From Escherichia coli (lineage in GTDB: Bacteria > Pseudomonadota > Gammaproteobacteria > Enterobacterales > Enterobacteriaceae), in the NCBI RefSeq assembly GCF_044324785.1, contig NZ_CP172127.1: a stretch of DNA of 64,000 nt. One strand, written 5' to 3'. The position numbers were made by a program, and so were the translations under genes. Under the pieces are notes generated by a model. That model had not been told where the DNA came from. It saw only the letters and a program-made list of their open reading frames with translations, and made no database searches. Positions 6,544 through 46,241 of the stretch are shown piece after piece (within the stretch, counting starts at the first letter, position 1; every line of letters begins with the position of its first letter).

Positions 6544-7398
6544 TTAACCTGCAATAGCCATTCCTACCGTCATGTGCAGGCCATAAAAGAGCACACGCCC
6601 GATCATCTCACCGCCAAGTATGAGGATTAGCCCCAGAACAAGTCCGGCAACGTGAGGTTCACGGCGACGAATGAGCGGACAAAGCCAGCATCCTAGACCT
6701 GCGCATAACAATACCACACGCCAGACCTGTAAGGAGGCGTAATCTGGTACCAGTGCGCTGGCTTGTTGTACGGATGAGTGAATAGACGCCAGAGACAAAC
6801 CTTGCAGCACAATCACCCCGGCACAAGCGATCAGCGCCAGAACGCTAATGATGGCAAATGGTGTGGTATTAAATGTAACGCGGGCTGCCCGCAGAATTGC
6901 GGCAGCAAGTATTGGACCACTCAATAATACTGTCAGGAAGAAAGCCAGCGTAGTGTAACCGTTATGCCAGGTTGGCACAGTGTCGATTTGATACACGCCG
7001 GTCATCATCCAGACGAAAATGACGCCGAGCGCCATGCTGACAAGTAACCAGAGTTTCCCCAACGCTTGCGGCATTTTACCGATGACCGCCACCAGCCACC
7101 ATAATCCGCCAACGGCAAAAAATATTGAACCGGCAGCAATCTCGTTACTCAGACCAGAAGCACCGATTCGATTCAGCGAGTTAAACGCTCGCAGTGGCGA
7201 TCCCAGGTGCATGACAGAGGCAATAAACCCGATGCCCATCAACAGCCAGAGGAAAAACATGCCACGAACAATGTGCTGACGGTCTGCGTCATTTTTGGCG
7301 GCGAACCAGCCAATTCCGCTAACAATCAGCGCGCCTACTACGCATTGACCCAATACGGTAAAGATAACCAGTGGCCATTCATGCCATCCATTTCCAAT
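6544..7398 (-). CDS. ynfH: DmsC-type membrane anchor subunit of the YnfEFGH oxidoreductase
   Basis: Hydrophobic polytopic ORF directly after ynfG; start codon uncertain because no ATG sits at the expected 284-aa start. Confidence 0.75.
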   Translation of the reverse strand: MGNGWHEWPLVIFTVLGQCVVGALIVSGIGWFAAKNDADRQHIVRGMFFLWLLMGIGFIASVMHLGSPLRAFNSLNRIGASGLSNEIAAGSIFFAVGGLWWLVAVIGKMPQALGKLWLLVSMALGVIFVWMMTGVYQIDTVPTWHNGYTTLAFFLTVLLSGPILAAAILRAARVTFNTTPFAIISVLALIACAGVIVLQGLSLASIHSSVQQASALVPDYASLQVWRVVLLCAGLGCWLCPLIRRREPHVAGLVLGLILILGGEMIGRVLFYGLHMTVGMAIAG

Positions 7399-7399
7399 T

Positions 7400-8017
7400 T
7401 TACACTTCCTCCGGATTAGCCAGATAACCAGTGGTATCGCCGGTCGGGCGGCTGTTGGCGTTAGGTTTGATAACGATATTGGGTTTTGTGAAATGCGCGC
7501 GCGGCAGTGGCGCGACGGCAGCCAGAGTGCCGTACTTCTGGCGCAGCTCTTCAATTGGACCGAACTCAAGTGCACGCAGCGGGCAGGATTCGACACATAT
7601 GGGTTGTTTCCCCTCGGCGACGCGCGAATAACAACCATCGCACTTCGTCATGTGCCCTTTTTCAGCATTGTACTGTGGCGCGCCGTACGGACAAGCCATG
7701 TGGCAGTAGCGGCAGCCGATACAAACATCTTCATCAACCACCACAAAGCCATCTTCACGCTTATGCATTGCGCCGCTGGGGCAGACTTTTGTACATGCGG
7801 GGTCATCGCAATGGTTACAGGAGATGGAGAGATAATAAGCGAACACGTTCTGGTGCCAGACGCCATTATCTTCCTGCCAGTCGCCGCCAGCATATTCATA
7901 AATACGGCGGAAACTGACTTCCGGGCCAAGATCTTTAAAATCTTTGCACGCCAGTTCGCAGGTTTTACAGCCAGTACAGCGGCTGGAATCGATAAAAAAT
8001 CCATATTGTGTGGTCAT
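7400..8017 (-). CDS. ynfG: 4Fe-4S ferredoxin-type subunit (DmsB-like)
   Basis: 205 aa with four CxxCxxCxxxCP clusters. Confidence 0.9.
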   Translation of the reverse strand: MTTQYGFFIDSSRCTGCKTCELACKDFKDLGPEVSFRRIYEYAGGDWQEDNGVWHQNVFAYYLSISCNHCDDPACTKVCPSGAMHKREDGFVVVDEDVCIGCRYCHMACPYGAPQYNAEKGHMTKCDGCYSRVAEGKQPICVESCPLRALEFGPIEELRQKYGTLAAVAPLPRAHFTKPNIVIKPNANSRPTGDTTGYLANPEEV

Positions 8018-8027
8018 GGGCTACTCC

Positions 8028-10454: not shown

Positions 10455-10511
10455 TACTCACTTATTGCTTTTCAAACAAAATGTCATGCCAGAATTTATG
10501 GTTGTAGTGGG

Positions 10512-12938: not shown

Positions 12939-13136
12939 AACTCACTCCCTGTTCTTTATCGTTATATAAAAGTTTATATATTGAATATTTAGCGCGCTAA
13001 CAATAGAGGGAGTCTACCTATTTTGGGTTAAGAATTATTAATCCATATCAATAGAAGGGTATGAGTAATAAGGTGGGATTATGTTGTATGTTCAAATCGC
13101 CGGATGTGTCGTATCCGGCGTTCAGTCGATAATGTG

Positions 13137-13442
13137 TTACTGCGGTTCGGCAGGCGCGCCATCCTGGGTAGACTGCGCGGGAGCAGAGACGTTACCGCTG
13201 GTGGTACGGGTGTAGAGAATTTTATGCGTATCATTAGCGCAATGCCCGACGACCTGGGAATCAGGCTGATCAACCTGGTCATTGGGTACAATACTTAACG
13301 TGAAGCTGCTTTCGGGTACGCCATTATTGATAATGCGCTGTGATATATCGCTCTGTATGCGCTCACAGGATCCCGGCGCGGCGAGTACCGCGGGTGAGGC
13401 GAGGGCGAGCAGAAGCGCGGCACAGCAGGTTGAGAGTTTCAT
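13137..13442 (-). CDS. ynfD: secreted DUF1161-type protein
   Basis: 101 aa from MKLSTCCAALLLALASPAVLA with a signal peptide. Confidence 0.85.
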   Translation of the reverse strand: MKLSTCCAALLLALASPAVLAAPGSCERIQSDISQRIINNGVPESSFTLSIVPNDQVDQPDSQVVGHCANDTHKILYTRTTSGNVSAPAQSTQDGAPAEPQ

Positions 13443-13549
13443 CATAAGCTCCTTACGCGAAGATAACTTCTTTAAGCATAGCATTTAACGTGTAAAGTAC
13501 TGTATTTGCTACTATGATTGAGAATCATCTCTACTCTCTGGTGACTGTT

Positions 13550-14260
13550 GTGAAATACAAATTACTGCCATGCTTACTCGCGATATTCCTCACAGGATGT
13601 GACCGCACAGAGGTAACACTTTCATTTACCCCTGAGATGGCCAGTTTCTCTAATGAATTCGATTTTGATCCGCTGCGTGGTCCGGTAAAAGATTTCACTC
13701 AGACATTAATGGATGAGCAAGGTGAAGTGACGAAACGTGTTTCTGGGACTTTGTCGGAAGAAGGCTGTTTTGATTCACTCGAATTACTGGATCTGGAAAA
13801 TAATACCGTGGTCGCTCTGGTACTGGACGCCAATTATTACCGTGATGCCGAGACGCTGGAGAAGAGAGTACGTTTACAGGGAAAATGCCAGCTAGCGGAA
13901 TTACCTTCTGCCGGGGTGAGCTGGGAAACCGATGATAATGGCTTCGTGATTAAAGCCAGCAGCAAACAGATGCAGATGGAATATCGCTATGATGATCAGG
14001 GTTATCCACTGGGTAAAACCACGAAAAGTAACGACAAAACATTATCTGTCAGCGCCACGCCATCAACGGACCCGATCAAAAAATTAGATTACACAGCGGT
14101 TACTTTACTGAATAATCAAAGGGTTGGTAATGTAAAACAGAGCTGTGAATATGACAGTCACGCCAATCCGGTGGACTGTCAGCTAATCATTGTTGATGAA
14201 GGAGTAAAACCCGCCGTCGAACGGGTTTACACCATCAAAAATACTATCGATTATTATTAA
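13550..14260 (+). CDS. ynfC: UPF0257-type lipoprotein
   Basis: Lipobox LLPCLLAIFLTGC; probable GTG start giving 236 aa. Confidence 0.8.
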   Translation: MKYKLLPCLLAIFLTGCDRTEVTLSFTPEMASFSNEFDFDPLRGPVKDFTQTLMDEQGEVTKRVSGTLSEEGCFDSLELLDLENNTVVALVLDANYYRDAETLEKRVRLQGKCQLAELPSAGVSWETDDNGFVIKASSKQMQMEYRYDDQGYPLGKTTKSNDKTLSVSATPSTDPIKKLDYTAVTLLNNQRVGNVKQSCEYDSHANPVDCQLIIVDEGVKPAVERVYTIKNTIDYY

Positions 14261-14262
14261 TG

Positions 14263-14823
14263 CTATTGTGCGGTCGGCTTCAGGAGAGTCTGACCCGGTA
14301 TTTTGTGCTCTGCCAGATACTGATGCTGGAATATGCACATGCGAATGGCATTCCGATATTGACCATTAATAAAGAACTCATGCATCAATTCACCTTCAAC
14401 CGTAAAGCCAAGCTTGCGGTAAATGTGAATCGCTTTTTCATTCTCTTTATCGACGATCAGATACAGCTTATAGAGATTGAGAACGGTGAAGCCATAGTCC
14501 ATTGCTAATTTTGCGGCACGCGTTGCCAGACCTTTCCCCTGATATTCCGGGGAGATAATTATCTGAAATTCTGCGCGGCGATGAACATGGTTAATTTCCA
14601 CCAGCTCCACCAGACCGGCTTTTTCGCCGTCACATTCCACCACAAAGCGCCGTTCGCTCTGATCGTGAATATGCTTATCGTACAGATCAGAGAGTTCAAC
14701 AAAGGCTTCGTAGGGTTCCTCAAACCAGTAACGCATCACACTGGCGTTATTGTCGAGTTGATGTACATAGCGTAAATCTTCACGCTCCAGCGGGCGTAGC
14801 TTAACACTGTGGGCGCTTGGCAT
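14263..14823 (-). CDS. speG: spermidine N1-acetyltransferase
   Basis: 186-aa GNAT protein matching recalled SpeG. Confidence 0.95.
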
Positions 14824-14857
14824 AACGTGTCCTTACATTCCTTAAATCAATAACAGG

Positions 14858-15199
14858 TTAGGGGGTAATAACGCGGCCAGTTCGACGGTCCAGGCAGCGC
14901 AAAGTATTTGGCTCCCAGTAGGCATTGATGTTGGCGCTTTGCTCACATTTATCGCGGTTATCAAAAGCGGCGTCGGCTTTATCCCACTCTTTTTCAGTGC
15001 GTTTATTCACTTTCTGGCGCAGATTGCGCGTGTCATTCCATTGCTCTTTTTCCATAGCGGCGTGCTGGCGGCTTTGTGCACTGTCGCCAGACTCAATCAC
15101 CAGTTTGTTAGTTTCGGCATGAACAGTTGTGCTCAATGCCAGTGTGCAAGGCAGCAGAAAAGCGAGCAGGCCAATTCGTTTGCTGAGAGTAATTTTCAT
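14858..15199 (-). CDS. ynfB: UPF0482 secreted protein
   Basis: 113 aa with signal peptide, conserved position. Confidence 0.85.
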
Positions 15200-15333
15200 A
15201 ATTCATTCCCTGTATGAATGATTAAAGGTGATTCTACACCATCCACTGCGAACGCAAAACGTACCAGGAGGATGTTTATATTGATGATATTATGTCGTCC
15301 TATAACTATACATGATGTCAATAAGTGACAAAG

Positions 15334-15660
15334 ATGATTAAAACAACGTTACTATTTTTTGCTACTGCGCTGTGTGAAATTATTGGATGCTTTCTGCCCT
15401 GGTTGTGGTTAAAACGAAACGCCAGTATCTGGCTGTTGCTTCCGGCGGGGATTTCTCTGGCACTGTTTGTCTGGTTGTTAACGTTGCATCCTGCGGCGAG
15501 TGGGCGTGTTTACGCGGCTTATGGTGGCGTTTATGTCTGCACGGCGTTGATTTGGCTGCGCGTTGTGGATGGCGTGAAACTGAGTCTTTATGACTGGACG
15601 GGGGCGTTGATTGCGCTTTGCGGCATGTTGATCATTGTTGCGGGCTGGGGGCGCGCGTAA
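15334..15660 (+). CDS. ynfA: UPF0060 small membrane protein
   Basis: 108 aa from MIKTTLLFF, four hydrophobic segments. Confidence 0.85.
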
Positions 15661-15865
15661 GGACATAAATCCATTTTATCAATAAGATACAAGGAAGTGT
15701 CAGCTGACAAAAGGTATTCTATTTCATCTTTTGTCAACCATTCACGGCGCAAATATACGCCTTTTTTTGTGATCACTCCGGCTTTTTTCGATTTTCATAC
15801 TTGTATGGTAGTAGCTCAGTTGCGTAGATTTCATGCATCACGACAAGCGATGCAAGGAATCGAAC

Positions 15866-17080
15866 ATGAAGATCGTAAAGGCTGAAGTTTTTGTTACCTG
15901 TCCGGGGCGTAATTTCGTCACATTAAAAATCACCACTGAGGACGGTATTACGGGCCTTGGGGATGCCACCCTCAATGGACGTGAGCTTTCCGTGGCCTCT
16001 TATTTGCAGGATCACCTTTGTCCGCAGCTTATTGGTCGCGATGCACACCGTATCGAAGATATCTGGCAGTTTTTCTATAAAGGAGCTTACTGGCGTCGCG
16101 GCCCGGTGACGATGTCGGCCATTTCAGCGGTTGATATGGCGCTGTGGGATATTAAAGCCAAAGCTGCCAACATGCCGCTTTACCAGTTACTCGGCGGCGC
16201 GTCTCGTGAAGGGGTGATGGTTTATTGCCATACCACCGGTCACAGTATTGATGAAGCTCTGGATGATTATGCCCGTCATCAGGAGCTGGGATTCAAAGCC
16301 ATCCGCGTGCAGTGCGGAATCCCTGGTATGAAAACCACCTACGGCATGTCGAAAGGTAAAGGTCTGGCTTATGAACCCGCAACCAAAGGACAGTGGCCGG
16401 AAGAGCAGCTGTGGTCGACGGAGAAATACCTCGATTTCATGCCGAAATTGTTTGACGCGGTACGTAACAAGTTTGGTTTTAATGAACATTTGCTGCATGA
16501 CATGCACCATCGCTTAACGCCTATTGAAGCGGCGCGCTTTGGTAAAAGCATTGAAGATTATCGCATGTTCTGGATGGAAGACCCGACGCCTGCGGAAAAC
16601 CAGGAATGCTTCCGTCTCATTCGCCAACATACCGTCACACCCATCGCGGTGGGTGAAGTCTTCAACAGCATCTGGGACTGCAAGCAACTGATTGAAGAGC
16701 AACTTATCGATTATATCCGCACCACGCTGACCCATGCAGGCGGAATTACCGGTATGCGCCGGATTGCCGATTTTGCTTCGTTGTATCAGGTACGTACTGG
16801 CTCACACGGTCCTTCCGATTTGTCACCAGTCTGCATGGCTGCGGCGCTGCACTTTGATCTGTGGGTCCCCAATTTCGGTGTCCAGGAATACATGGGTTAT
16901 TCCGAACAAATGCTTGAAGTCTTCCCGCACAACTGGACTTTCGATAACGGCTATATGCATCCGGGAGACAAACCGGGTCTTGGCATCGAATTCGATGAAA
17001 AGCTGGCGGCGAAATATCCCTATGAACCTGCTTATCTGCCAGTCGCACGGCTGGAAGATGGCACGCTGTGGAACTGGTAA
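15866..17080 (+). CDS. rspA: starvation-sensing protein RspA (enolase-superfamily mannonate dehydratase-like)
   Basis: 404 aa from [17 protein letters not shown]. Confidence 0.9.
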
Positions 17081-19937: not shown

Positions 19938-20282
19938 TTAAGAATCAGCCTGACTCGGGATCAGTTTTTGCCAGATAACTGAAACGTATTTTGCCTGGTA
20001 ACGGGCGTCATCAAGTGCATTATGGCGCTCACCTTCGAATGGAATAGCCGTTCTGGCATCGAAGTCTATGGCTTTCCCCAGCTCAACGATTGTGCGTACA
20101 TCGCGATCGTTGTAGTAACGCCACGGGCAGGGGATCCCCTGCCGTTCGTATGAACGGCGCAAAATCGTGTTGTCGAAGTTGGCTCCATTTCCCCAAACCT
20201 GAACAAAAAATTCACCGGAGTTTTCGTCGATAAATTCCCGCAATTGTAACAGTGCATCATCTAACGGGATTTCATCGGTCAT
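19938..20282 (-). CDS. C-terminal part of a split DEDDh 3-5 exonuclease (Exo II and Exo III motifs)
   Basis: WGNGANFD and HNALDDARY motifs; start overlaps the upstream stop as ATGA; the Exo I motif is in the preceding ORF. Confidence 0.7.
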   Translation of the reverse strand: MTDEIPLDDALLQLREFIDENSGEFFVQVWGNGANFDNTILRRSYERQGIPCPWRYYNDRDVRTIVELGKAIDFDARTAIPFEGERHNALDDARYQAKYVSVIWQKLIPSQADS

Positions 20283-22411
20283 AATGGCCGATTGCGCTTC
20301 GCGTGATTGCTCTTAAGCCACCATTTAATGGTGTCCCGATCAATGACTCCGCCAGCAGTTTCCAGATCGATAGTCTTACTAAATTCCGGTCCCATATCTC
20401 CGGTTTGCGGATCGAAAAATATTGCACCTATTGAGATGATCGGGGCATCAGGATTTTTTCCCATGGTTTCAAGGTCGATCATTAGATGGTCACACGTCCT
20501 GCTGGTGGATGTGATTTCGTGATGACCGTTCACCTTAATTGAGTGATCTGCCGTCTCGCCAGTTTCATTATCGCTATCGTGATGCTGATTGCCGCCAGCG
20601 TTCTCCTTGTGTGGATGTTCAGCGCCTTCCATTTCCTCCGGATCATCTTCCTGAACTTCAACCTGATACTCTTCATCGAATGTTTCTTGGTATGTTGCGT
20701 CGCCCATCACCGCGCCACAATCAGGGCAGTTGCCGCCGCCGGTCTGACCGCAAGCGGTGCAGACTTTTTCCACTTCCTGTTGCGCCACTGATTCAGGCTG
20801 TTTCGTTTCTGGCTCGTTTTGTAACGCATTTGGGCTGTTTTGTTCCGCTTTTTGGTAGTTCCGTTCCGATTCATGCTGGTTCTGGTTCACAGAATCGCGG
20901 GTCTGGATCCCCTTAACCCATTTCGGATCATTCGGGTCACTAATCCCTTCAACAAATTCACCACGTGATGCAGCAAGCAACTTATCGGCGTCAGGCTGGC
21001 TGATATTGGCTGCCTGCATAATTTTGTTTACTTCGTCAGCGGTAACTTTTATCGGCTCTGGTTGTTCTGAATCTTCAGCGGTATCTACATTTTGCGGTAA
21101 GCCCGTGTATGTGCCATTTTTTCGGGCAAAATATTCTTCTTTTGTGATTTCAGTGGCGCCAGCAGCCAGTGCCTTATCCAGACCAGAAAGTTTGTTTGCG
21201 CGACCGTATTTTTCTCCGTCCTTATCTGCGAAGAGGAAATAGAACGGCCCCTCACGCTCTACAGATGGTTCAGCTTCCGGTGCGGTTTCATTTTTTGGGA
21301 TATCAGATACCTCAGTTTCCACTGCATCAGTTTGTGTTTCTGATGACTTGAGAACATCAACAGTGCCCAGGTCTGTTTCTTCATTCTCAAACACGCCCTT
21401 TGTCGTCAGGTATTCGCAGATATATTTGTTCAGTGCTACGGGATCTTTGTGAATGTCGATCGGACGCTCACGGACAAGGCCAAAAATAGTTTGGCGGTCG
21501 TAGCGAAGGGCATCAGGCTGTTTGCGTATTGATGCCGAGATACGCTTCCAGTCTTCGCGGTCGTTGTCGATAACTTCATTTTTTGCCCAGCGATGGATGC
21601 TGCCGTCAATGTTTCCGGCATCCACATCACCAGGCCAGAGAGCGTAGGCCAGTTCGTCATCCAGTGTTTTCCATGTCTGCTTGTATTCGCGATGAATGGC
21701 AGCAATGACCGGGCTGATTTTTCCTGTTGAATTTTCAGTGTACTGTTGATTGGCTCTGGCGCGGGCGAGATCAACAACAGACGTGTATTTTCCGGTTTCC
21801 TTGCGTTCACCTTCGCGACGTTTTTTCCAGATGCGCATCTCTGCCTGAATTTCGGGCCATTTAGCACCAGGAATACATTTATGCTTAACCCACCCAATGG
21901 CGTGCAACTTAAGCTCCGGATACATGGCGTTAACTTCTGGCATTTTCATCAACGCTTCAACGATATGTCCGTTGAATGTTGCCATGTCTTCCTGCAACAA
22001 TTCCTGTGCGCTAATAACCATATCAACGGTGATGTTTTCACATGTGTCGAACTTAACCATGACAGCGTTCTGTACTTCAGGGGCCAGCTTGTCAAAAGTG
22101 ACGTTCATCGGATCGGATTCAGTCTCAACCGGGACAAAAGAAGCAGACTCCTCATCCCAGCGGTTTTCCTGCATATATTCAGCATCCCATGAATCGAGGG
22201 CAGGGCGGGGTATACCAGGTTTATCCTCGCAGACAATAAATTTATAAGCGCAGTCCTGAGCAGCCGGATAATGTTCCAGGAATTGCCAGTGAAATTTTGC
22301 TCGAGCACGGCGTTCGTCGCCAGCTTCAATGGCTGTGGCTACAGCCACAGCGCCTTCTTCCCTTGTTGCCAGTTCGTCAGGAATAGCGGCGCAAATAAAG
22401 ACTTTACTCAT
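20279..22411 (-). CDS. prophage exonuclease, N-terminal 710 aa (RecE/exodeoxyribonuclease VIII position) ending in an Exo I motif
   Basis: 710-aa ORF with acidic low-complexity middle, Cys4 zinc-ribbon (CTACGQTGGGNCPDCG) and C-terminal MIDLETMG motif. Confidence 0.7.
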   Translation of the reverse strand: MSKVFICAAIPDELATREEGAVAVATAIEAGDERRARAKFHWQFLEHYPAAQDCAYKFIVCEDKPGIPRPALDSWDAEYMQENRWDEESASFVPVETESDPMNVTFDKLAPEVQNAVMVKFDTCENITVDMVISAQELLQEDMATFNGHIVEALMKMPEVNAMYPELKLHAIGWVKHKCIPGAKWPEIQAEMRIWKKRREGERKETGKYTSVVDLARARANQQYTENSTGKISPVIAAIHREYKQTWKTLDDELAYALWPGDVDAGNIDGSIHRWAKNEVIDNDREDWKRISASIRKQPDALRYDRQTIFGLVRERPIDIHKDPVALNKYICEYLTTKGVFENEETDLGTVDVLKSSETQTDAVETEVSDIPKNETAPEAEPSVEREGPFYFLFADKDGEKYGRANKLSGLDKALAAGATEITKEEYFARKNGTYTGLPQNVDTAEDSEQPEPIKVTADEVNKIMQAANISQPDADKLLAASRGEFVEGISDPNDPKWVKGIQTRDSVNQNQHESERNYQKAEQNSPNALQNEPETKQPESVAQQEVEKVCTACGQTGGGNCPDCGAVMGDATYQETFDEEYQVEVQEDDPEEMEGAEHPHKENAGGNQHHDSDNETGETADHSIKVNGHHEITSTSRTCDHLMIDLETMGKNPDAPIISIGAIFFDPQTGDMGPEFSKTIDLETAGGVIDRDTIKWWLKSNHAKRNRPL

Positions 22412-22534
22412 TTTGTTTTAACCTCATGACAGATTTAAGGATGAACAAATCCCTGCCATTGCTGGCATATAAGAATGAAACCGGATATTTATTACGGAAC
22501 TGTTTTAAAGACCTGCCGGGATTTCGATATTATC

Positions 22535-22705
22535 CTAGTGAATAACTTTATCGACCGGGTAACAGTTACCGGGAATTTTCTGTTCGGTTGCTGCAGTCAT
22601 ACACTCCTGCATTGTCCTGTGAACACTGACTGCAATATCAACTGGCACTCCGGAAACAAGAAAAACTGTCAGAACAAGCGCAAATGCTGAATTCATTGTG
22701 CACAT
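22535..22705 (-). CDS. ydfD: small secreted/membrane protein at the YdfD (Qin lysis-protein) position
   Basis: Signal-like MNSAFALVLTVFLVSG directly downstream of dicB; start choice uncertain. Confidence 0.55.
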   Translation of the reverse strand: MCTMNSAFALVLTVFLVSGVPVDIAVSVHRTMQECMTAATEQKIPGNCYPVDKVIH

Positions 22706-22881
22706 CCTTTTGGCATCAGACGTAAACGAGCCAGCATTGAAACAATGCATATTTTATTTAATAGCTCCCGTTCTTGTTTTCTCTTGTTAATGGCATCTTC
22801 AGTAAATACAGGGTTACTGATAGTGACACCAATTTCAAAACAACCTTCAGACGTATTAACGTTTGGTAATAACGTTTTCAT
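22693..22881 (-). CDS. dicB: cell division inhibitor DicB
   Basis: 62 aa MKTLLPNVNTSEGCFEIGVTISNPVF... matches recalled DicB; internal start of the 97-aa ORF. Confidence 0.9.
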   Translation of the reverse strand: MKTLLPNVNTSEGCFEIGVTISNPVFTEDAINKRKQERELLNKICIVSMLARLRLMPKGCAQ

Positions 22882-23055
22882 TATCGCGCCCTCAACAATG
22901 AGTTTTGTGATGCGGTGCCTGGTGCCTCCAGGTGACGTTAACCAGTTAACAATTAACGCCGGATACAGAGAATCCACCCATAACACTGTTTTTGGTTTTA
23001 ACTGTTCCGCGTGCGCTCAGCCGCATTCACCACATCACAAAATTCACTTTAAAAA

Positions 23056-23108
23056 GGGCGGCAGAGCAGTCACGGAGTAAAACTGATACCGCCAAACGTC
23101 ACCAGAAA
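23056..23108 (-). ncRNA. dicF: DicF small regulatory RNA
   Basis: Minus strand reads TTTCTGGTGACGTTTGGCGGTATCAGTTTTACTCCGTGACTGCTCTGCCGCCC followed by a T-run, matching recalled DicF; lies between ydfC and dicB as in K-12. Confidence 0.85.
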
Positions 23109-23448
23109 ATTGATAACAGAGGGCGTTGCAGCGGGGTTGTCACTTAAGCGTATGGTCAACCTGACAACCCGGTGTCCTCAACGGGGAAGGAATAACCCCG
23201 CCATACTTACCGCCGCGCCATTTCGCGGGTTGCCACAACCGGAAGCGCACGGTCGACGAAAATTTAACGACAGGCTATCTATGAACCAGCTACCTCGCCG
23301 TGCGCTTTCGCGTTATGGTCTGACTTTTCAGGGAAATATCCTTTCAGTAAACTGTCAGTGCCGGATGCTCACCCGTGTCCGGCGCACGCACTCCACCTCA
23401 CCCGTGGAGAACTCCTTAATTACCAACCTTAGCTTCGTTGGTTAGCTA

Positions 23449-23667
23449 TTAACGCGGGTATGTAATCATTCTGGCAATGCTTAATGCCGCTGCTTTTTCC
23501 AGATTGGTGATATCCTGCTCCAGAGAGAACAGATTTTCAGCCTGCTTAGCCCTGGCTTCATTAGCCCATTTCAGATCCTGCGCTGCATTAATTTTCTGGT
23601 GCATCCACTCATAAAGTTCATCATCGGTATAGTCTGGCGCGATGATAACGGGTTCTCGTTTCTGCAT
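23449..23667 (-). CDS. ydfC: Qin-type protein YdfC
   Basis: 72-aa ORF in the conserved dicB operon position. Confidence 0.8.
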   Translation of the reverse strand: MQKREPVIIAPDYTDDELYEWMHQKINAAQDLKWANEARAKQAENLFSLEQDITNLEKAAALSIARMITYPR

Positions 23668-23696
23668 ACTGATTCCTTGCGGTGCTGTTTCGCTTA

Positions 23697-23825
23697 TCAG
23701 CCGTTAGATTTTGCCGAACTGGAAAGCGCCTGTTTAAATTCGCTGAAGCTGAGAGCTTCTTCGCCTTCGGCAAGGCCTTCGAAGTATTCTTCGTAAGCCT
23801 TTTCCATGATTGTGTCGAAATCCAT
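23697..23825 (-). CDS. ydfB: Qin-type small protein YdfB
   Basis: Manual translation MDFDTIMEKAYEEYFEGLAEGEEALSFSEFKQALSSSAKSNG, 42 aa, below the ORF-track length cutoff. Confidence 0.75.
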   Translation of the reverse strand: MDFDTIMEKAYEEYFEGLAEGEEALSFSEFKQALSSSAKSNG

Positions 23826-23826
23826 A

Positions 23827-23982
23827 TCACCCACCTGAATTTCTTTCCAGCCAGCGACGCGCTCCAGATTCGGTTTTAAACGTTTTGCTTTTGGTATACG
23901 TCATTGCGGTGAACGTGCCGTCCTGGTTTGGAAACACGCCGTACACCAGAGATTCGTTGTTGCCAAGATCGATAGTATCCAT
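23827..23982 (-). CDS. ydfA: Qin-type small protein YdfA
   Basis: 51 aa from MDTIDLGNNESLVYGVF, first gene of the dicB operon. Confidence 0.8.
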   Translation of the reverse strand: MDTIDLGNNESLVYGVFPNQDGTFTAMTYTKSKTFKTESGARRWLERNSGG

Positions 23983-24095
23983 GCTGACCTCATTTCCCCT
24001 TAACGCCGGGGTAGCGGAACTGTTTGCTGAGAACACCGTGCGGTGTCTTGATGGAAAATAATTTAGAATAACCTAACATGAGAGGCAAGTGTTTT

Positions 24096-24113
24096 TGTTA
24101 GATTGATCTAACA
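24096..24113. promoter_or_regulatory. 18-bp palindromic operator (TGTTAGA-N4-TCTAACA) in the dicB-operon promoter region
   Basis: Perfect palindrome tgttagattgatctaaca between dicA and ydfA; same half-sites as the site at 24607-24624. Confidence 0.5.
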
Positions 24114-24149
24114 AAAAGGGTGGGCGCAACTAATCACTTGAAAAGAATG

Positions 24150-24557
24150 TTATTTTATTGATTTATTTTTACGCGCTTTAAGCATTTCTTCGAAGAGTTT
24201 GTTGAAGTTTTCTACTCTTGCGCGCATTTCAGACAGCAAGGCTTCCTGCTCGGAAGATGGAAGAGCATCGAATAATTCGATCAATTCTTTGTGGTTGGGA
24301 GTTAGCTCTGTTTCCACATGAAGTTCTTGTGCAGGCACTGGTGCCTTGTCTTCGTCACCAAACATTAGCCATGTAGGTGAGCACTTCAGAGCATCCGCTA
24401 AAGCAAACAATCGTTTTCCGACTGGCTGGGTTTCGTCTCTTTCCCATTGTGAAATTGTGACGTGAGCAACTCCAGCGAGGCGCGCGGCTTCTCGTTGTGT
24501 TAAGCGTAATTCTTTTCGTCGCGCCAGAACTCGCTGGCCCAGGGTTCTTGTATCCAT
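24150..24557 (-). CDS. dicA: Cro/C1-type HTH repressor, DicA-like
   Basis: 135 aa with N-terminal HTH (LRLTQREAARLAGVAHVTISQWE); divergent from dicC. Confidence 0.8.
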   Translation of the reverse strand: MDTRTLGQRVLARRKELRLTQREAARLAGVAHVTISQWERDETQPVGKRLFALADALKCSPTWLMFGDEDKAPVPAQELHVETELTPNHKELIELFDALPSSEQEALLSEMRARVENFNKLFEEMLKARKNKSIK

Positions 24558-24606
24558 AGTTAGGTAATTCTAATTTTTCTTGACTTAGGTATCCCGCGCA
24601 CAATAA

Positions 24607-24624
24607 TGTTAGAAAAGTCTAACA
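24607..24624. promoter_or_regulatory. 18-bp palindromic operator in the dicA-dicC divergent promoter region
   Basis: tgttagaaaagtctaaca just upstream of the dicC start, with a TTGACT -35-like hexamer at 24580-24585. Confidence 0.5.
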
Positions 24625-24634
24625 AGAGGGGGAT

Positions 24635-24865
24635 TTGATGCTTAAAGTTGACGCAATTACTTTTTTTGGCAGCAAAACAAAGCTTGCCAATGCCGCAGGA
24701 GTGAGGCTGGCAAGTGTTGCTGCTTGGGGGATACTGGTTCCTGAAGGTCGCGCGATGCGTCTACAGGAGGCATCTGGCGGGGAGCTTCAGTATGATCCCA
24801 AAGTTTATGATGAATATCGTAAGACGAAGCGGGCGGGGCGGTTGAACAATGAAAATCACTCCTGA
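24635..24865 (+). CDS. dicC: Cro-like regulator DicC
   Basis: 76 aa; C-terminal RAMRLQEASGGELQYDPKVYDEYRKTKRAG matches recalled DicC. Confidence 0.8.
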   Translation: MMLKVDAITFFGSKTKLANAAGVRLASVAAWGILVPEGRAMRLQEASGGELQYDPKVYDEYRKTKRAGRLNNENHS

Positions 24866-25370
24866 ACAGGCTCGTGAGGCTCTGGATGCCTGGATATGTC
24901 GACCAGGAATGACACAGGAGCAGGCGACGATATTAATCACTGAAGCATTCTGGGCTTTGAAAGAGCGCCCGAACATCGATGTTCAGCGTGTCACAGATGA
25001 AGGTGGCGCGGTTGATCAGCGAGCGCTTGGTGTTAATCGAGTGAAGATATTCGAACGCTGGAAGGCTATCGACACCAGGGATAAGCGTGAAAAGTTCACG
25101 GCGCTAGTGCCTGCGATTATGGAGGCTATCCGGATTAGTGATTTCAGGTTGTATCGTGAAATTACTGACGGAAAAAGCATCACGTGCATGATCGCCGGGT
25201 TAAACAAAGAATATGGCGATGTGGTGGAGTCCGGACTGCTTTTTGCTGATCCTGCCGTAGTGGATCGTGAAACTGACGAACTTATAGAAAAAGCAATTGC
25301 TTTCAAGCTTGCGTATCGACAGCAATACCAACAAAAAGCTGGATGGAATTATGAGCCTTCTTTTTGCTGA
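24849..25370 (+). CDS. hypothetical phage early protein (cII/YdaT position)
   Basis: 173-aa ORF overlapping the dicC stop; function not recognisable from sequence. Confidence 0.45.
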   Translation: MKITPEQAREALDAWICRPGMTQEQATILITEAFWALKERPNIDVQRVTDEGGAVDQRALGVNRVKIFERWKAIDTRDKREKFTALVPAIMEAIRISDFRLYREITDGKSITCMIAGLNKEYGDVVESGLLFADPAVVDRETDELIEKAIAFKLAYRQQYQQKAGWNYEPSFC

Positions 25371-26316
25371 ACGCCCACTGGTTATAAACACGCAGCTGGC
25401 AATGAAAATTGGCTTAAACGAAGCCATTGTTTTGCAACAACTGCACTACTGGTTGAGAGATACCAACTCCGGCATGGAATGTGATGGTGTTCGCTGGATT
25501 TATAACACAACGGAACAATGGCTGGAACAGTTCCCATTCTGGTCAGAGTCAACGTTAAAGCGCGCGTTTGCAAGTCTGAAAACGCTGGGGCTTTTGCGTT
25601 GTGAAAAGCTCAATAAATCAAAGCGCGATATGACCAATTTCTACACGATCAACTATGGGAGCGAGCTTTTAGATGGTGGCAAATTGAGCGAATCCATCGG
25701 TTCAAAATGCGCCGCTCCATCAGGTCAAAATGACACGATGGAAGAGGTCAAAATGAAACGCTCCATTGATTCAAAACGACCCAATGTCATCGGGTCAAAA
25801 TGGCCTGATGATCTTACAGAGAATACAACAGAGATTACTACAGAGAATAAAAACACTTTTCGTCCGGAAGCTTCGCAACCGGACCCGCAGACGACTGAAC
25901 AGGATTTTTTAACCCGGAACTCCGACGCGGTTGTGTTTAGTGCGAAAAAACGCCAGTGGGGTAGCAGGGAGGATTTGGCGTGTGCGCAGTGGATCTGGGG
26001 GCGGATCGTGGGTCTCTACGAACAGGCAGCCAGTGATGATGGCGAGATCATGCGACCAAAAGAGCCTAACTGGACTGCCTGGGCCAATGACGTGCGCACA
26101 ATGCGGATGCTGGATGGCAGAAGCCACAGACAAATTTGCGAAATGTTTGGTCGGGTTCAGCGAGATCCATTCTGGGTAAAAAACATCATGAGCCCGTCAA
26201 AGCTCCGCGAAAAATGGGACGAACTGGTCATCCGCCTGGGACGTTCACCTGTACAGCGTTGTGTTAATCATATTTCTGAACCGGATACAGAAATTCCGCC
26301 TGGTTTCAGAGGATAA
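25297..26316 (+). CDS. phage replication initiation/organizer protein (O-like)
   Basis: N-terminal winged-helix replisome-organizer-like region, acidic linker, conserved C-terminal domain; true start probably MSLLFAERP at 25351. Confidence 0.6.
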   Translation: MLSSLRIDSNTNKKLDGIMSLLFAERPLVINTQLAMKIGLNEAIVLQQLHYWLRDTNSGMECDGVRWIYNTTEQWLEQFPFWSESTLKRAFASLKTLGLLRCEKLNKSKRDMTNFYTINYGSELLDGGKLSESIGSKCAAPSGQNDTMEEVKMKRSIDSKRPNVIGSKWPDDLTENTTEITTENKNTFRPEASQPDPQTTEQDFLTRNSDAVVFSAKKRQWGSREDLACAQWIWGRIVGLYEQAASDDGEIMRPKEPNWTAWANDVRTMRMLDGRSHRQICEMFGRVQRDPFWVKNIMSPSKLREKWDELVIRLGRSPVQRCVNHISEPDTEIPPGFRG

Positions 26317-26356
26317 GTGTTGATTTCAGGTCATGAGGTAATTTTAAGGGGGACTT

Positions 26357-26779
26357 GTGGCAAAAGTTTTTACACAAGAAGAGCGGGAAAAAATTAAATG
26401 GCAGGTGGTGGAACTCGTGCGCCAGAGCGGCCGTGAGACGTTACGGCAACTGGAAGCTAAAACAGGTGCGACTAGATATCTGATGAGCGTTCTTGCCAGA
26501 GAGCTGGTAGCCAGTGGCGATGTATACAACTCCGGCTACGGGTTATTCCCCTCTGAACAGGCGCGTAAGGACTGGCAAAACGCCCGCAAAAAACTCTCGA
26601 GGGCAAAGGTGAAGAAACCTGCTGTGGTTGATCCGGACCTTATCTGGTCATCACCTGACGGAGAAATACGTCGCTACGACAGTCGCCTAAACATAATCTG
26701 TCGCGAGTGCCGGAAGAGCGAAGTTATGCAGCGCATACTGGCTTTCTATCAGGGTAATTTTCAGGACGTGGCGCAGTGA
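26357..26779 (+). CDS. hypothetical phage protein
   Basis: 140-aa ORF with good coding character, no recognisable motif. Confidence 0.45.
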   Translation: MAKVFTQEEREKIKWQVVELVRQSGRETLRQLEAKTGATRYLMSVLARELVASGDVYNSGYGLFPSEQARKDWQNARKKLSRAKVKKPAVVDPDLIWSSPDGEIRRYDSRLNIICRECRKSEVMQRILAFYQGNFQDVAQ

Positions 26780-27210
26780 GTGCACCGGCAACCATTCTTG
26801 ATATGTGCTGTGGCAGCCGCATGTTCTGGTTCGATAAGTCTGACGAACGGGCGATATTTAGCGATATCAGAAAAGAAGGATACACATTACGCAATGGGAG
26901 ACGCTTGATTATCAGCCCTGACATTATCGCAGATTTTCGTGCATTATCATTTGCAGACGCATCTTTTTCGATGGTTGTATTAGACCCTCCGCATCTTGAG
27001 CGTGTTGGTGATAACGCCTGGATGGGAAAGAAATATGGACGGCTGAATAAAGATGCCTGGCGTGATGATTTGCGACAGAGATTTAAAGAAGCTTTTCGGG
27101 TGTTGAGGCCGCACGGCGTTCTGATTTTTTAATGGAATGAAACGCAAATACCGGTAAGCCAGATTCTGGCACTGACAGATAGAAAGCCTGTTATCTGTCA
27201 ACGAACAGGG
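26776..27210 (+). pseudogene. truncated phage DNA methyltransferase (amino-MTase with DPPH motif)
   Basis: VLDPPHL catalytic motif; stop inside a T-run at 27130-27132, similarity continues about 26 codons in-frame after it. Confidence 0.6.
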
Positions 27211-27554
27211 AAAAAACGATAAAACCCACTGGATTATTTTTATGAAAGAGGCATCCAGTGAGTAGATTCGTAAGGTTACAGATACGTATATCTGAATAAT
27301 TAAATTCAGTTCTGTAAATAAAACTTAATCCTTAACCGGATGGATTTCTGCACCCTCAGAACATCAGGAGGCCGCCCGAAAGGGCGGTAGTGAAATGCGA
27401 AAGTTCAAAATTATTATTGAAACGGGAATAGCTGGTGGAGATTTTGAGGATGTATTCGAAGTGGACGATGACGCAACACCTGATGAAATTCATGACGGAG
27501 CATAAGAAATTTTCTTTAACTACTGCAATTACTCATACCACGAAATAAAAGACG

Positions 27555-28030
27555 ATGAGGAAGAACAAAGTGGCTGATTTTTGTTCAGCTAAATATAACA
27601 TCAGTTTTGAAGAGCGGGATGAACTATTAATGGACTATGGTGAGTTACGCGGTGGAAGTGCTGCTGATGTCGAATCCTAGCGTGATGACTATGAAGCGGG
27701 AAAAACTCCGGTCGAAGCATATTGTGAGGAGTGGGGCGATGAATGAGCGAGATTAATTATCAGGAAGGGCATGAAACGGCGGGGCAAGCAAAACCAGTGA
27801 CATGGCGATATCGCTACGTGAAAAAAGGCGTTACGGACTTTCAGGGGAAGTAGTGGTCTGGTGACTGGAAATATGTACCGAAAAAAGAGGATTGTAACGA
27901 CAGGCCGAACTATCAAATTCAGGCCTTATTCACTGCCTCACCAGTCCCGGTTACATCAGAAGAATTGGTTAAAGCTGTGCACTTTTATGAACAACTAAAA
28001 CGCGAAAATCCACCAACATCCGGCAACTAG
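27555..28030 (+). pseudogene. two translationally coupled small ORFs, each interrupted by one in-frame TAG
   Basis: Frame-0 ORF 27555-27746 has TAG at 27678; overlapping frame-2 ORF 27743-28030 (MSEINYQEGHE...) has TAG at 27851. Confidence 0.35.
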
Positions 28031-28284
28031 ATTAATGGGTTAACTATGTCGGTTAAACGACCAGCCAACTGAAAAAGCGGAAACCTGATTACAGGTTGCC
28101 AGATAAGGCAATGAGCTACCTGGCGCGGAACGGACTGATAAGTATGGGGAATGTTTTACGATGAACCTTTAGACTAAAGAGTTTGTAACGCTATGTAAGT
28201 GATTTTTTCTGGTTTAGATATTTATATGTCCGGCCAAATTGAGGTGTGTTTAAATGTAATTGCACATTGATTGTAGGAGGAATA

Positions 28285-28464
28285 ATGAAAAACGCATTGC
28301 AGTTTTTGTTTGTTGCGTTCTGGTTGTTCGCATCATGTATGCCCATCATCTTCACAGCAAGGTATATGGAAAAAGTTGATGTTTTGATATTAATATTTGG
28401 ATATATAAATGCCCTTTTTTTAGGGGTGTTCATGGCGGTCATGTGCATTGAATACTGGCGGTAA
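28285..28464 (+). CDS. small two-helix membrane protein, unknown function
   Basis: 59 aa from MKNALQFLFVAFWLFASCMPIIF, preceded by AGGAGG Shine-Dalgarno. Confidence 0.45.
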   Translation: MKNALQFLFVAFWLFASCMPIIFTARYMEKVDVLILIFGYINALFLGVFMAVMCIEYWR

Positions 28465-29755
28465 ATACAGCGAACTCCATTGGTTTAGTTGGATATTTAC
28501 TGTGCTGGACAAAAACGGTTTGCGGGGAAATCTTAGTTAAGTAGAATGACTGCGGGTGCTTGAGGCTATCTGCCTCGGGCACGAACACCAACGGCAGGTA
28601 GAGAAAAGCCCCAGTTAACATTACGCGTCCTGCAAGACGCTTAACATTAATCTGAGGCCAATTTCATGCCAGACACATGTAGGTTAGCCTCTTACGTGCC
28701 GAAAGGCAAGGAGAAGCAGGCTATTGTTAACACCAAGCTGTAATGTCCCCTTTGAACCATTCTAAAATGTCCCCAGACAATTCTCTGGGGGATTTTTCAT
28801 GACCAAAGAAACTGTTACGATGAGTCATAAGGAACTCCACCGACTTCAGATTATTCAGGAGTCAATTAATCGACATATTACTCAGGAACAAGCTGCGGCA
28901 CGCATTGGCATTTCTATTCGGCAGGTTAAACGTCTGGTGCAACGGTATAGAAATGAAGGGCCTTCTGGTCTGGTTTCCCACCGACGTGGAAAGCGTCCTA
29001 ATAATTCCTTTTCTACTGAATTCAGAGCAACAGTAATTTTACTCCTCAAAGGCCGTTACGCTGATTTTGGACCTACGTTTGCGTGCGAAAAATTGCGCGA
29101 GATACACGGTTTATCTTTATCCGTTGAAACTCTCAGAAAGTGGATGATAGAAGAGGGGGGTATGGCGTGAACGCCGTCGTAAAATTGCCCGTATATATCA
29201 ACGCCGCATGCGACGACCATCTTACGGTGAACTGATCCAGATTGATGGCTCACCTCATGACTGGTTTGAAAATCGAGGCCCCAGATGTACACTGATCGTT
29301 TTCATTGATGATGCCACCAGTGCGTTGATGGCGTTGCGTTTTGTGCCTGCTGAAACAACCCGGGCTTACATGGAAACCCTCCGGGGTTACCTTAATGATC
29401 ATGGCGTACCGCTCGCTCTCTACTCTGATAGACACAGTATATTCAGGGTAAATAACCCAGAGCGGGAAGGTGAGCTGACCCAGTTCACTCGTGCGATAAA
29501 GACACTGGGCATCGAGCCAATCCATGCCAACAGCCCGCAGGCAAAAGGGCGGGTAGAGCGCGCCAATCAGACACTACAGGACAGGCTGGTCAAAGAAATG
29601 CGGCTTCAGAATATCAGTGATATTGAAACAGCAAATGCATGGTTGCCGACCTTTATTGAAGCCTATAACAACCGGTTCGCTACGTCGCCTCGTACTACTG
29701 ATAATGCTCATCTTGATGTGCACCATTCTGAAGAGGAACTGGGTTATATCTTCAG

Positions 29756-29764: not shown

Positions 29765-30821
29765 GGCTTTGTTGAATAAATCAGATTTCGGGTAAGTCTC
29801 CCCCGTAGCGGGTTGTGTTTTCAGGCAATACGCACGCTTTCAGGCATACCTGCTTTCGTCATTTTGTTCAGCGCTCGTACCAGGGCCATAGCCTCCGCAA
29901 CCTGACCATCGTAGTCACGCAGCGTCAGTGAACCCCCGAACAGCTGTTTTACCCGGTACATCGCCGTTTCCGCTATCGAGCGACGGTTGTAATCTGTTGT
30001 CCATTTCCACCGCGCATTACTCCCGGTCATTCGCTGATTAGCCACTGCACGGTTACGGTCTGCATATTCACCGGGCCAGTAACCCGCACCTTTTCGGGGA
30101 GGGATAAGCGCGCTGATTTTCTTACGCCGCAGTTCATCGTGACATAGCCGGGTATCGTAAGCGCCATCGGCGGCGGCTGACCTGATTTTCCGGTGGGTTT
30201 GCCGGATTAACCCGGGGAAGGCCTCTGAGTCCGTAACGTTGTTCAGCGACAGGTCAGCGCAGATGATTTCATGTGTTTTACTGTCAACGGCGAGATGCAG
30301 CTTACGCCAGATACGGCGGCGTTCCTGGCCATGCTTTTTGACTTTCCACTCGCCTTCACCGAAGACCTTCAGCCCGGTGGAATCAATTACCAGGTGTGCG
30401 ATTTCACCCCGGGTGGGCGTTTTGAAACTGACATTAACCGACTTTGCCCGCCTGCTGACACAGCTGTAATCCGGGCAGCGTAGCGGAACGTTCATCAGAG
30501 AAAAAATGGAATCAATAAAGCCCTGCGCAGCCCGCAGGGTCAGCCTGAATACGCGTTTAATGACCAGCACAGTAGTGATGGCAAGGTCAGAATAGCGCTG
30601 AGGTCTGCCTCGTGAAGAAGGTGTTGCTGACTCATACCAGGCCTGAATAGCTTCATCATCCAGCCAGAAAGTTATGGAGCCACGGTTGATGAGGGCTTTA
30701 TTGTAGGTGGGCCAGTTGGTGATTTTGAACTTTTGCTTTGCCACGGAACGGTCTGCGTTGTCGGGAAGATACGTGATCTGATCCTTCAACTCAGCAAAAG
30801 TTCGATTTATTCAACAAAGCC
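29765..30821 (-). mobile_element. IS903-group insertion sequence (IS5 family), 1057 bp
   Basis: Perfect 18-bp terminal inverted repeats GGCTTTGTTGAATAAATC, 1057-bp length and 9-bp duplication typical of IS903/IS102. Confidence 0.9.
29821..30744 (-). CDS. IS903-type DDE transposase
   Basis: ORF inside the IS with DDE residues and YREK-like signature; probable GTG start giving 307 aa. Confidence 0.85.
   Translation of the reverse strand: MAKQKFKITNWPTYNKALINRGSITFWLDDEAIQAWYESATPSSRGRPQRYSDLAITTVLVIKRVFRLTLRAAQGFIDSIFSLMNVPLRCPDYSCVSRRAKSVNVSFKTPTRGEIAHLVIDSTGLKVFGEGEWKVKKHGQERRRIWRKLHLAVDSKTHEIICADLSLNNVTDSEAFPGLIRQTHRKIRSAAADGAYDTRLCHDELRRKKISALIPPRKGAGYWPGEYADRNRAVANQRMTGSNARWKWTTDYNRRSIAETAMYRVKQLFGGSLTLRDYDGQVAEAMALVRALNKMTKAGMPESVRIA

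Positions 30822-42560: not shown

Positions 42561-46241
<3,681 letters not shown>

Follow-up and report, generated by a model that had tools for sequence, protein, structure and literature searches.

A tandem dinucleotide insertion divides a ydfE-family prophage 3′-5′ exonuclease gene of Escherichia coli into two open reading frames

The locus and the frameshift

The window analyzed in this study, a 64,000-nucleotide stretch of an Escherichia coli genome (contig NZ_CP172127.1), carries on its minus strand a prophage exonuclease gene that is divided into two open reading frames (ORFs) of 710 and 114 codons. A preliminary description of this DNA had correctly reported the two ORFs and the overlap of stop and start codon as ATGA; at the junction the letters read CGG CCA TTA TGA, with ATG ACC GAT in the −1 frame. 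The motif positions given there also agree with our results, as MIDLETMG (Exo I) is located near the end of the 710-aa ORF and WGNGANFD (Exo II) and HNALDDARY (Exo III) are located in the 114-aa ORF. The features of the locus are listed below; residue numbers (D646, E648, D746, H796, and D801) follow the intact 823-aa protein throughout.

19938 to 22411, minus strand: whole disrupted ydfE-family prophage exonuclease gene, delimited by end-to-end alignment with single-ORF orthologues
20279 to 22411, minus strand: upstream fragment ORF, 710 aa, consisting of ancestral residues 1 to 700, 10 out-of-frame residues (SNHAKRNRPL), and the stop codon
19938 to 20282, minus strand: downstream fragment ORF, 114 aa, which corresponds to ancestral residues 710 to 823
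20279 to 20282, minus strand: ATGA stop/start overlap, a by-product of the frameshift
20312 to 20313, minus strand: 2-bp insertion (the lesion), the only point at which the gene departs from the NZ_CP027462 allele
20282 to 20311, minus strand: out-of-frame tail of the 710-aa ORF, where the ancestral frame encodes QSREAQSAI(M)

The disrupted gene corresponds to ydfE of the Qin prophage in its full-length form. Precomputed Pfam matches comprise YdfE_N and YdfE_C (PF27430 and PF27432) and the Rv2179c-like domain, and Phrog_2082 ("exonuclease") matches positions 1 to 822 of the 823 residues. The protein consists of the N-terminal YdfE_N/YdfE_C part, a RecE-like middle part (residues 246 to 625), and a C-terminal DEDDh domain. 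The host element is a lambdoid, Qin-type prophage inserted beside rspB, and the order dicB-ydfD-exo-xis-int-rspB is common to the window and its relatives. The chromosomal flank (positions 1 to 16000 of the window) shares no more than 99.2% identity with any complete RefSeq E. coli, and the source may be a Shigella or a lineage of E. coli not yet sampled. The full-length YdfE-family exonuclease WP_021511903.1 of E. coli 07-4299 has the same domains and the same location, and the window copy shares 99.9% nucleotide identity with it. The ydfE gene of the Qin prophage in E. coli K-12 is a truncated remnant of the full-length gene. In the literature, ydfE was found to be named only in gene lists, and no paper on its function was found.

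The gene has a length of 2,474 nt in the window, compared to 2,472 nt (823 aa) for the intact form. When aligned with the closest intact allele, that of E. coli 07-4299 (NZ_CP027462), it showed no substitution over 2,472 nt, the 2-bp insertion being the only change. On the coding strand, AG was duplicated in tandem after codon K700, which converted CTTAAG-CAATC to CTTAAGAGCAATC, in a context (AAG-CAA, now AAGAGCAA) that contains no homopolymer. In about 45 kb of prophage compared with the same near-identical relative, the AG insertion was the only frame-breaking indel. As nothing else separates the window gene from the closest intact allele, the event is recent.

Across the break, the ancestral protein reads ...IKWWLKQSREAQSAIMTDEIPLDD..., and the ancestral join is IKWWLK-QSREAQSAI-MTDEIPLDD. 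The sequence SNHAKRNRPL is out of frame, and nine conserved residues are lost. In an alignment of 22 homologues, the QSREAQSAI segment, which is now read by neither ORF, has invariant E, A, and I, with Q, S, and A conserved to at least 90%. This segment corresponds to a conserved helix, predicted in the AlphaFold model at domain residues 73 to 80.

The preliminary description had considered a recent 1-bp frameshift within 20270 to 20290 that splits a DEDDh exonuclease. A recent frameshift does split such a domain, but the alignment identified the lesion as a 2-bp AG duplication at 20312 to 20313. A 1-bp frameshift at the ATGA itself was ruled out by the alignment to the intact allele, in which the 2-bp insertion is positioned 30 nt upstream. 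One base added at the ATGA junction would restore the frame arithmetically but not the real sequence; the proposed fusion NRPL-MTDE differs from the true ancestral join, as the 710-aa ORF ends in 10 out-of-frame residues.

Intact and decayed copies of the gene

The YdfE-family orthologues, including those of E. coli 07-4299, of the phages HannyBb, Tritos, and mEp460, and of PHROG 2082, are single ORFs, whereas the window copy consists of 710 plus 114 aa. Each of the top 40 E. coli matches is annotated as one exonuclease coding sequence. A single ORF of 823 or 813 aa is present in each of the isolated phages HannyBb, Tritos, mEp460, and vB_EcoS-640R1, so that the refuting condition named in the preliminary description mostly speaks for the frameshift reading. 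Of 750 phage records with a match, 40 were listed in an even spread; in these the domain is present in one piece, and all but the weakest match cross the break point. All 21 of 21 homologues with 58% to 87% identity are contiguous through WWLKQSxEARxAI, and the intact junction is present in at least 120 IMG/VR contigs.

In other genomes, the gene has been lost repeatedly. Among full-length IMG/VR copies, 59 of 65 are uninterrupted and 6 of 65 (about 9%) are disrupted, and independent lesions range from a 1-bp deletion and the stop codons E381* and W697* to truncations, among them one by IS66. The PPompW prophage examined (EH1846) is annotated as "frameshifted by deletion," and relatives of this prophage in EHEC Stx2a phage records share the label "putative exonuclease."

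None of the 3,482 E. coli records holding the 86-bp stretch contained the AG insertion, which was thus missing from 3,476 complete E. coli genomes, and it was likewise not found in GTDB species representatives, JGI metagenome contigs, IMG/VR contigs, or the isolated phages checked. This absence is what one would expect if the extra AG were a sequencing or assembly error that is missing from the real genome, in which case the gene would be intact, and a single difference from an intact allele is also what such an error would look like. However, an exact-protein look-up found the 710-aa product in Logan assemblies of two sequencing samples. These contigs are built directly from reads, and the contig with the 710-aa product is identical (100%) to the window over 8,133 bp, although the two samples may stem from one strain, or from the very data behind the window, and may thus not be independent. 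In addition, the AAG-CAA context is free of homopolymers, and sequencing platforms do not typically produce 2-bp insertions as errors. We therefore regard the AG insertion as probably real, because it is present in read-derived assemblies, and consider an error very unlikely.

The divided exonuclease domain and the ATGA overlap

The C-terminal 180 residues of the 823-aa protein form a DexA/Rv2179c-like DEDDh 3′-5′ exonuclease domain (residues about 642 to 813). The restored protein matched the Pfam model PF16473 (Rv2179c-like 3′-5′ exoribonuclease domain) at model positions 2 to 177 of 177 (E value, 5.2e-67), whereas the 710-aa ORF alone matched only positions 2 to 69. An AlphaFold (AF2) model of residues 631 to 823 of the restored sequence (pLDDT, 85) fits an RNase H-like alpha/beta fold with a five-stranded sheet, and the best Foldseek matches of this model were T4 DexA, RNase T, DnaQ, oligoribonuclease (Orn), and REXO2, with E values of 1e-7 to 1e-11. 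The 22 homologues show hardly any variation at the five DEDDh residues: in the D-x-E motif of Exo I, D646 is invariant and E648 at least 90% conserved; in Exo II, D746 is invariant; and in the H-x4-D motif of Exo III (HNALDD), which defines the "h" subtype, H796 and D801 are both invariant.

In the window, these motifs are no longer located on one polypeptide. The 710-aa ORF retains Exo I (D646 and E648), strands beta1 to beta3, and helix 1 of the exonuclease domain, and the 114-aa ORF, whose ATG is the internal Met710 codon, retains Exo II (D746) and Exo III (H796 and D801). The domain is cut after residue 700, and the nine conserved residues are read by neither ORF. In the AlphaFold model the break falls between the domain helices 62 to 69 and 73 to 80, and the cut parts beta1-beta3 from beta4-beta5 of the core sheet. 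The restored protein matches over its full length the Rv2179c-like family (PF16473) of the DEDDh (DnaQ-like) superfamily, to which RNase T, Pol III epsilon, and oligoribonuclease also belong, whereas the domain in the window is interrupted after model position 69. Because the domain is cut and nine residues are lost, the window gene is a pseudogene of a member of the DEDDh superfamily rather than a working member. We infer that the window allele has lost exonuclease activity.

The ATGA overlap is an accident of the frameshift. After nt 1982 of the intact gene, the shifted frame meets no stop before the TGA at nt 2129, and the next start codon in frame is the ATG at nt 2128, so that any shift of the same phase between nt 1985 and nt 2128 necessarily yields the overlap. 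Met710 is not conserved among the homologues. In the L006 genome, a pair of 709 plus 114 aa with the same ATGA is present, which arose from an independent 1-bp deletion at nt 2023; as this lesion is a different one, the L006 pair is a case of convergence and not of conservation. The preliminary description had named intact phages with the same two-ORF organization and conserved ATGA as evidence against a recent inactivation; the phages have single ORFs, and the one corresponding pair, that of L006, stems from its own lesion.

An ATGA overlap is a classic arrangement for translational coupling, and all five catalytic residues are still encoded, shared out between the two ORFs. This raises the possibility of a functional two-subunit exonuclease, in which the 114-aa ORF is coupled to the 710-aa ORF and both polypeptides together form an active DEDDh site; the L006 pair might be taken as a second example. 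Termination-reinitiation at an ATGA overlap can proceed without a Shine-Dalgarno sequence, and therefore some 114-aa product may be made; in principle, the fragments of a split enzyme can also complement each other. However, the gene is a single ORF in every isolated phage checked and in about 90% of the IMG/VR copies, any shift of this phase in that interval forces the overlap, Met710 is not conserved in the family, and the L006 pair stems from a different lesion. Moreover, the 114-aa ORF lacks a Shine-Dalgarno sequence, its value of −1.7 kcal/mol being close to the median for all ATGs of the window, the helix with the invariant residues is lost, and the cut distributes the strands of the modelled core sheet over two chains. 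The two-polypeptide alternative of the preliminary description is thus refuted, and a working two-subunit enzyme in this strain appears highly improbable.

The frames of the two ORFs are related by −1 with an overlap of about 30 nt, and a dinucleotide duplication is a change typical of repeat slippage. Programmed ribosomal frameshifting, transcriptional slippage, or a phase-variable switch might thus be thought to restore the full-length protein. However, no slippery heptamer of the type X XXY YYZ was found in 20279 to 20330 of the window, the relatives have no ORF overlap that could be a conserved frameshift site, and more than 3,400 orthologues need no recoding. With only two AG units, the repeat falls well below the length needed for phase variation. 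Frameshifting within the overlap would yield a product that misses part of the conserved QSREAQSAI segment. We consider recoding or switching extremely improbable.

Taken together, we have little doubt that the window gene is a recently formed, ordinary strain-specific pseudogene. The intact gene, located between ydfD/dicB and xis/int, encodes one 823-aa protein, and in this strain the tandem duplication of AG after codon 700 shifted the reading frame. Translation would then run 10 codons out of frame and end at the first TGA, which happens to overlap the internal Met710 codon. The active site is thereby cut in two, with D646, E648, and beta1-beta3 on the 710-aa product and D746, H796, D801, and beta4-beta5 in a 114-aa ORF without a ribosome-binding site, and the conserved nine-residue helix between the halves is lost.

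Relationship to RecE, DexA, and EcD

The preliminary description had referred to a recombination exonuclease, and many database records call the YdfE-family gene "exodeoxyribonuclease VIII." RecE, the exodeoxyribonuclease VIII of the Rac prophage, is a 5′-3′ enzyme with a different fold and works with RecT. Residues 246 to 625 of the YdfE-family protein align to positions 271 to 602 of the 877 positions of the RecE model (NCBIfam PRK09709) with a score of 282 bits, which is below the curated cut-off of 1269. At the nucleotide level, about 400 nt match recE of Rac-SA53 at 85%. The RecE nuclease domain (model positions about 602 to 877) is missing from the YdfE-family protein, which has the DEDDh domain instead. 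The window ORFs in 22400 to 29300 correspond to the early-region genes of the near-identical collinear relative, none of which is annotated as RecT-, Bet-, or Erf-like. A role as recombination exonuclease is thus not supported, the nuclease being of the 3′-5′ DEDDh type and not of the RecE/lambda Exo type.

The closest studied relatives are T4 DexA and the anti-T4 exonuclease EcD. Among solved structures, T4 DexA (exonuclease A; PDB 8KEL/8KEN) gave the best sequence match (E value, 1.6e-6), and it was also the best fold match of the AlphaFold model (E value, 3.5e-11; TM score, 0.72). DexA and EcD share with the YdfE-family domain the DEDDh catalytic residues and the WW..QS.EA motif, but the identity of DexA to this domain is only about 21%. 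Whereas DexA (227 aa) and EcD are free-standing, the YdfE-family domain forms the C terminus of an 823-aa protein. At the position equivalent to D90 of DexA, the YdfE-family protein has Asp and EcD has Ala. The intact enzyme presumably is a DNA 3′-5′ exonuclease like DexA and EcD.

EcD, a bacterial DexA homologue, was described as an anti-T4 defence exonuclease (HREX), and experiments on EcD showed that it selectively cleaves 5hmC-modified DNA and protects against T4 (PMC12153337). By analogy, the intact YdfE-family protein might be a prophage defence nuclease of the DexA/EcD (HREX) type, in which a RecE-like scaffold is fused to a 3′-5′ exonuclease directed against the modified DNA of T-even phages that superinfect the host. 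The basis of this reading consists entirely of the homology of the C-terminal domain to DexA and the one paper on EcD (PMC12153337), and we regard it as a rather unlikely prospect. EcD (HAK9828821.1) was not among the listed members of the retrieved homologue clusters, and PADLOC gave no match for the 823-aa protein.

The two ORFs are best annotated as one frameshifted ydfE-family 3′-5′ exonuclease pseudogene rather than as two genes or as "exodeoxyribonuclease VIII / RecE." Beyond annotation, the importance of the finding is small. The AG insertion provides a clean lineage marker for the strain. The locus also illustrates that an ATGA overlap resembling translational coupling can be the automatic result of a shift in frame ahead of an internal Met codon, which explains the recurring 114-aa "exonuclease" fragments in databases, including a PHROG family of their own (phrog_8783). 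If the protein were indeed a defence nuclease, its repeated independent inactivation, in about 9% of the IMG/VR copies, in many E. coli assemblies, and by the AG insertion described here, would reflect a carrying cost or changing phage pressure, and the window allele would represent a natural loss-of-function control. In view of the report on EcD/HREX, the YdfE family, with its RecE-like scaffold and DexA-like nuclease, may merit study.

The split gene and its intact orthologues

The ORF listing and the sequence itself confirmed that the ydfE-family exonuclease gene is represented in the window by two minus-strand ORFs, in which the stop of the upstream ORF overlaps the start of the downstream ORF as ATGA, and that the exonuclease motifs are divided between the two.

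20279..22411, minus strand: upstream ORF, 710 aa, MIDLETMG near its end
19938..20282, minus strand: downstream ORF, 114 aa, containing WGNGANFD and HNALDDARY
20312-20313, minus strand: AG insertion, CTTAAGCAATC to CTTAAGAGCAATC (multiple alignment)

In a megablast search of 5,426 complete E. coli genomes, 3,488 had the region at a coverage of at least 80%. The best matches measured 2549 nt compared to the 2551-nt query, and each of the best 40 of the 3,488 matches had one annotated "exonuclease" CDS. As a single 2472-nt ORF (823 aa), the gene is present in the closest genome, E. coli 07-4299 (NZ_CP027462), as well as in phage HannyBb and one further strain. In the multiple alignment, two added bases, AG on the coding strand, were the sole difference between the window and the 07-4299 allele. 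The frame was therefore shifted by tandem duplication of 2 bp, 30 nt upstream of ATGA, rather than by a single-base change within the overlap. The earlier proposal of a frameshift was right in substance, but not in the size and position of the lesion. Since the orthologue translation reads ...DRDTIKWWLKQSREAQSAIMTDEIPLDDALLQL..., the 710-aa ORF consists of ancestral residues 1-700 followed by ten out-of-frame residues (SNHAKRNRPL), the 114-aa ORF corresponds to residues 710-823, and residues 701-709 (QSREAQSAI) are missing from both.

The insertion was present in none of 3,482 E. coli records holding the surrounding 86 bp (best identity, 84/86), and the junction with the insertion was not found in GTDB species representatives, JGI metagenome contigs, or IMG/VR; the intact junction occurred in at least 120 IMG/VR contigs. 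The exact 710-aa product was recorded on Logan contigs from two sequencing samples, with 100% identity between Logan contig and window over 8,133 bp. The AG insertion is therefore present in independently assembled reads, which makes an assembly artefact unlikely; we retain it as a formal possibility because the two samples may represent one strain.

Origin of the ATGA overlap

Read in the shifted frame, the intact gene has no stop from nt 1982 until a TGA at nt 2129, and the ATG at nt 2128, which is the Met710 codon, is the first in-frame start after the lesion. It follows that exactly this overlap, an accident of the frameshift, arises from any shift of the same phase between nt 1985 and 2128. 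The E. coli assembly L006 likewise has a pair of ORFs (709 aa and 114 aa) with an ATGA overlap, which there results from the loss of a single base at nt 2023, an unrelated event. The Met710 position is variable in the wider family (L, C, V, I, N, D, A).

The preliminary description had also considered a two-polypeptide arrangement, for which orthologous phage genes were to be compared. As in the best 40 E. coli matches, a single ORF was present in all four isolated phages examined (HannyBb, Tritos, mEp460, and vB_EcoS-640R1). The exonuclease domain was matched in 750 phage records and was a single piece in the 40 listed, which were spread evenly down the ranking. No Shine-Dalgarno sequence precedes the ATG of the 114-aa ORF: its pairing energy of -1.7 kcal/mol is close to the median for the 2,251 ATGs of the window, compared to -6.3 kcal/mol at the true gene start. 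The ORF overlap contains no slippery heptamer. A two-polypeptide enzyme was rejected, as a Shine-Dalgarno sequence is absent, the four isolated phages each have a single ORF, the L006 pair has an unrelated cause, and the overlap is a by-product of the frameshift.

Exonuclease domain and family assignment

Residues 642-813 of the restored protein matched the complete model of PF16473 (Rv2179c-like 3'-5' exoribonuclease domain; E 5e-67), and with the 710-aa ORF alone the match ended at model position 69 of 177. All five DEDDh residues (D646, E648, D746, H796, and D801) show no or almost no variation. An AlphaFold2 model of residues 631-823 (22 homologues as input, mean pLDDT 85) had T4 DexA as its top structural match (8KEL, E 3.5e-11), followed by RNase T, a DnaQ domain, oligoribonuclease, and REXO2; DexA was the only match in a sequence search of solved structures. 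According to the model, the frameshift site lies between helices 62-69 and 73-80 (domain numbering), so that the upstream product keeps strands beta1-beta3 and Exo I, and strands beta4-beta5, Exo II, and Exo III fall on the downstream ORF. In the lost segment, E, A, and I are invariant and Q, S, and A nearly invariant. Free-standing relatives of the C-terminal nuclease (180-190 aa, ~60% identity) occur in E. coli, Salmonella, Klebsiella, and Citrobacter.

Precomputed Pfam matches assign YdfE_N and YdfE_C to the N-terminal part, and PHROG 2082 ("exonuclease") spans the protein from end to end. The RecE equivalog model PRK09709 covers only residues 246-625 (model positions 271-602 of 877), with 282 bits versus a cut-off of 1269. 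The protein therefore has in common with RecE a homologous non-catalytic module but carries a different nuclease, the C-terminal DexA/Rv2179c-like DEDDh domain. In the nearly identical relative, the annotation of the early region includes no gene resembling RecT or Bet. Because of the different nuclease and the lack of an annotated RecT/Bet-like gene, neither the label "exodeoxyribonuclease VIII" nor the earlier designation "recombination exonuclease" is supported. The protein is a mosaic, as seen at window 19938-22411 (protein level) and at locus L001 (1540-4011), and has a CxxC...CxxC motif (CTACGQTGGGNCPDCG) at residues ~555-570. A 2025 paper (PMC12153337) describes bacterial homologues of T4 DexA and reports that EcD, a member of this group, protects E. 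coli against T4 and cleaves DNA modified with 5hmC. PADLOC had no model matching the 823-aa protein.

Prophage context and recurrent decay

After ynfE-rspAB chromosomal DNA, the window continues into a full-length lambdoid prophage of the Qin family with int, xis, dicB/DicF, relBE, hokD/sok, cspB/F/I, lysis, terminase, head, and tail genes, and gpJ.

18299 to at least 64000: Qin-family lambdoid prophage adjoining rspB, collinear with the 07-4299 prophage
23056-23107 (minus) and 28554-28725 (plus): DicF antisense RNA and sok antitoxin RNA (Rfam, above gathering score)
29766-30821: IS903-like insertion sequence, ~1,057 bp, nested in a prophage-borne ISEsa1-like transposase remnant
29821..30789, minus strand: IS903-like transposase ORF, 322 aa
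36665-37057 and 39568-39953, plus strand: two cspA-type thermoregulator leaders (Rfam, above gathering score)
42535-44460: terminase large subunit, uninterrupted 641-aa ORF

DicF, sok, and the cspA-type leaders are expected parts of a Qin-type prophage. The IS903-like element is absent from NZ_CP027462, the closest relative. Apart from the AG insertion, no indel relative to 07-4299 disrupts a reading frame across ~45 kb, the others being intergenic or compensated, and the exonuclease gene has no substitutions; the insertion is therefore very recent. The prophage otherwise looks well preserved. Its terminase large subunit gene is intact, whereas the annotation of 07-4299 gives it as a pseudogene containing an internal stop, so that, the exonuclease apart, the window prophage may be less decayed than its closest relative. 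Whereas the early region and that of 07-4299 are ~99.9% identical, divergence in the chromosomal flank (15-18 kb) is 1-3%, which suggests a recent exchange of the prophage between lineages. For the chromosomal backbone (window 1-16000, with ynfE/F, clcB, and mlc among its genes), identity to the 5,426 complete RefSeq E. coli genomes does not exceed 99.2%.

The exact 114-aa product was called as its own gene in 373 blocks of the assembly collection, and at least seven different lesions were seen at ten places examined, including a 1-bp deletion, E381*, W697*, an IS66 insertion, and several truncations. The annotation of the PPompW prophage examined (EH1846) states a frameshift by deletion. Among full-length IMG/VR copies, 59 of 65 were intact and six (~9%) were disrupted by other frameshifts. 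Decay of this gene is common, and fragment-sized PHROG families such as phrog_8783 (114 positions) exist for this reason. Orthologues in the E. coli assemblies L006, L008, L009, and L011 have independent lesions; the disrupted IMG/VR copies are L026, L045, L058, L065, L136, and L138. The gene in the window is a real, ordinary, strain-specific frameshift pseudogene of a known prophage family of predicted exonucleases.
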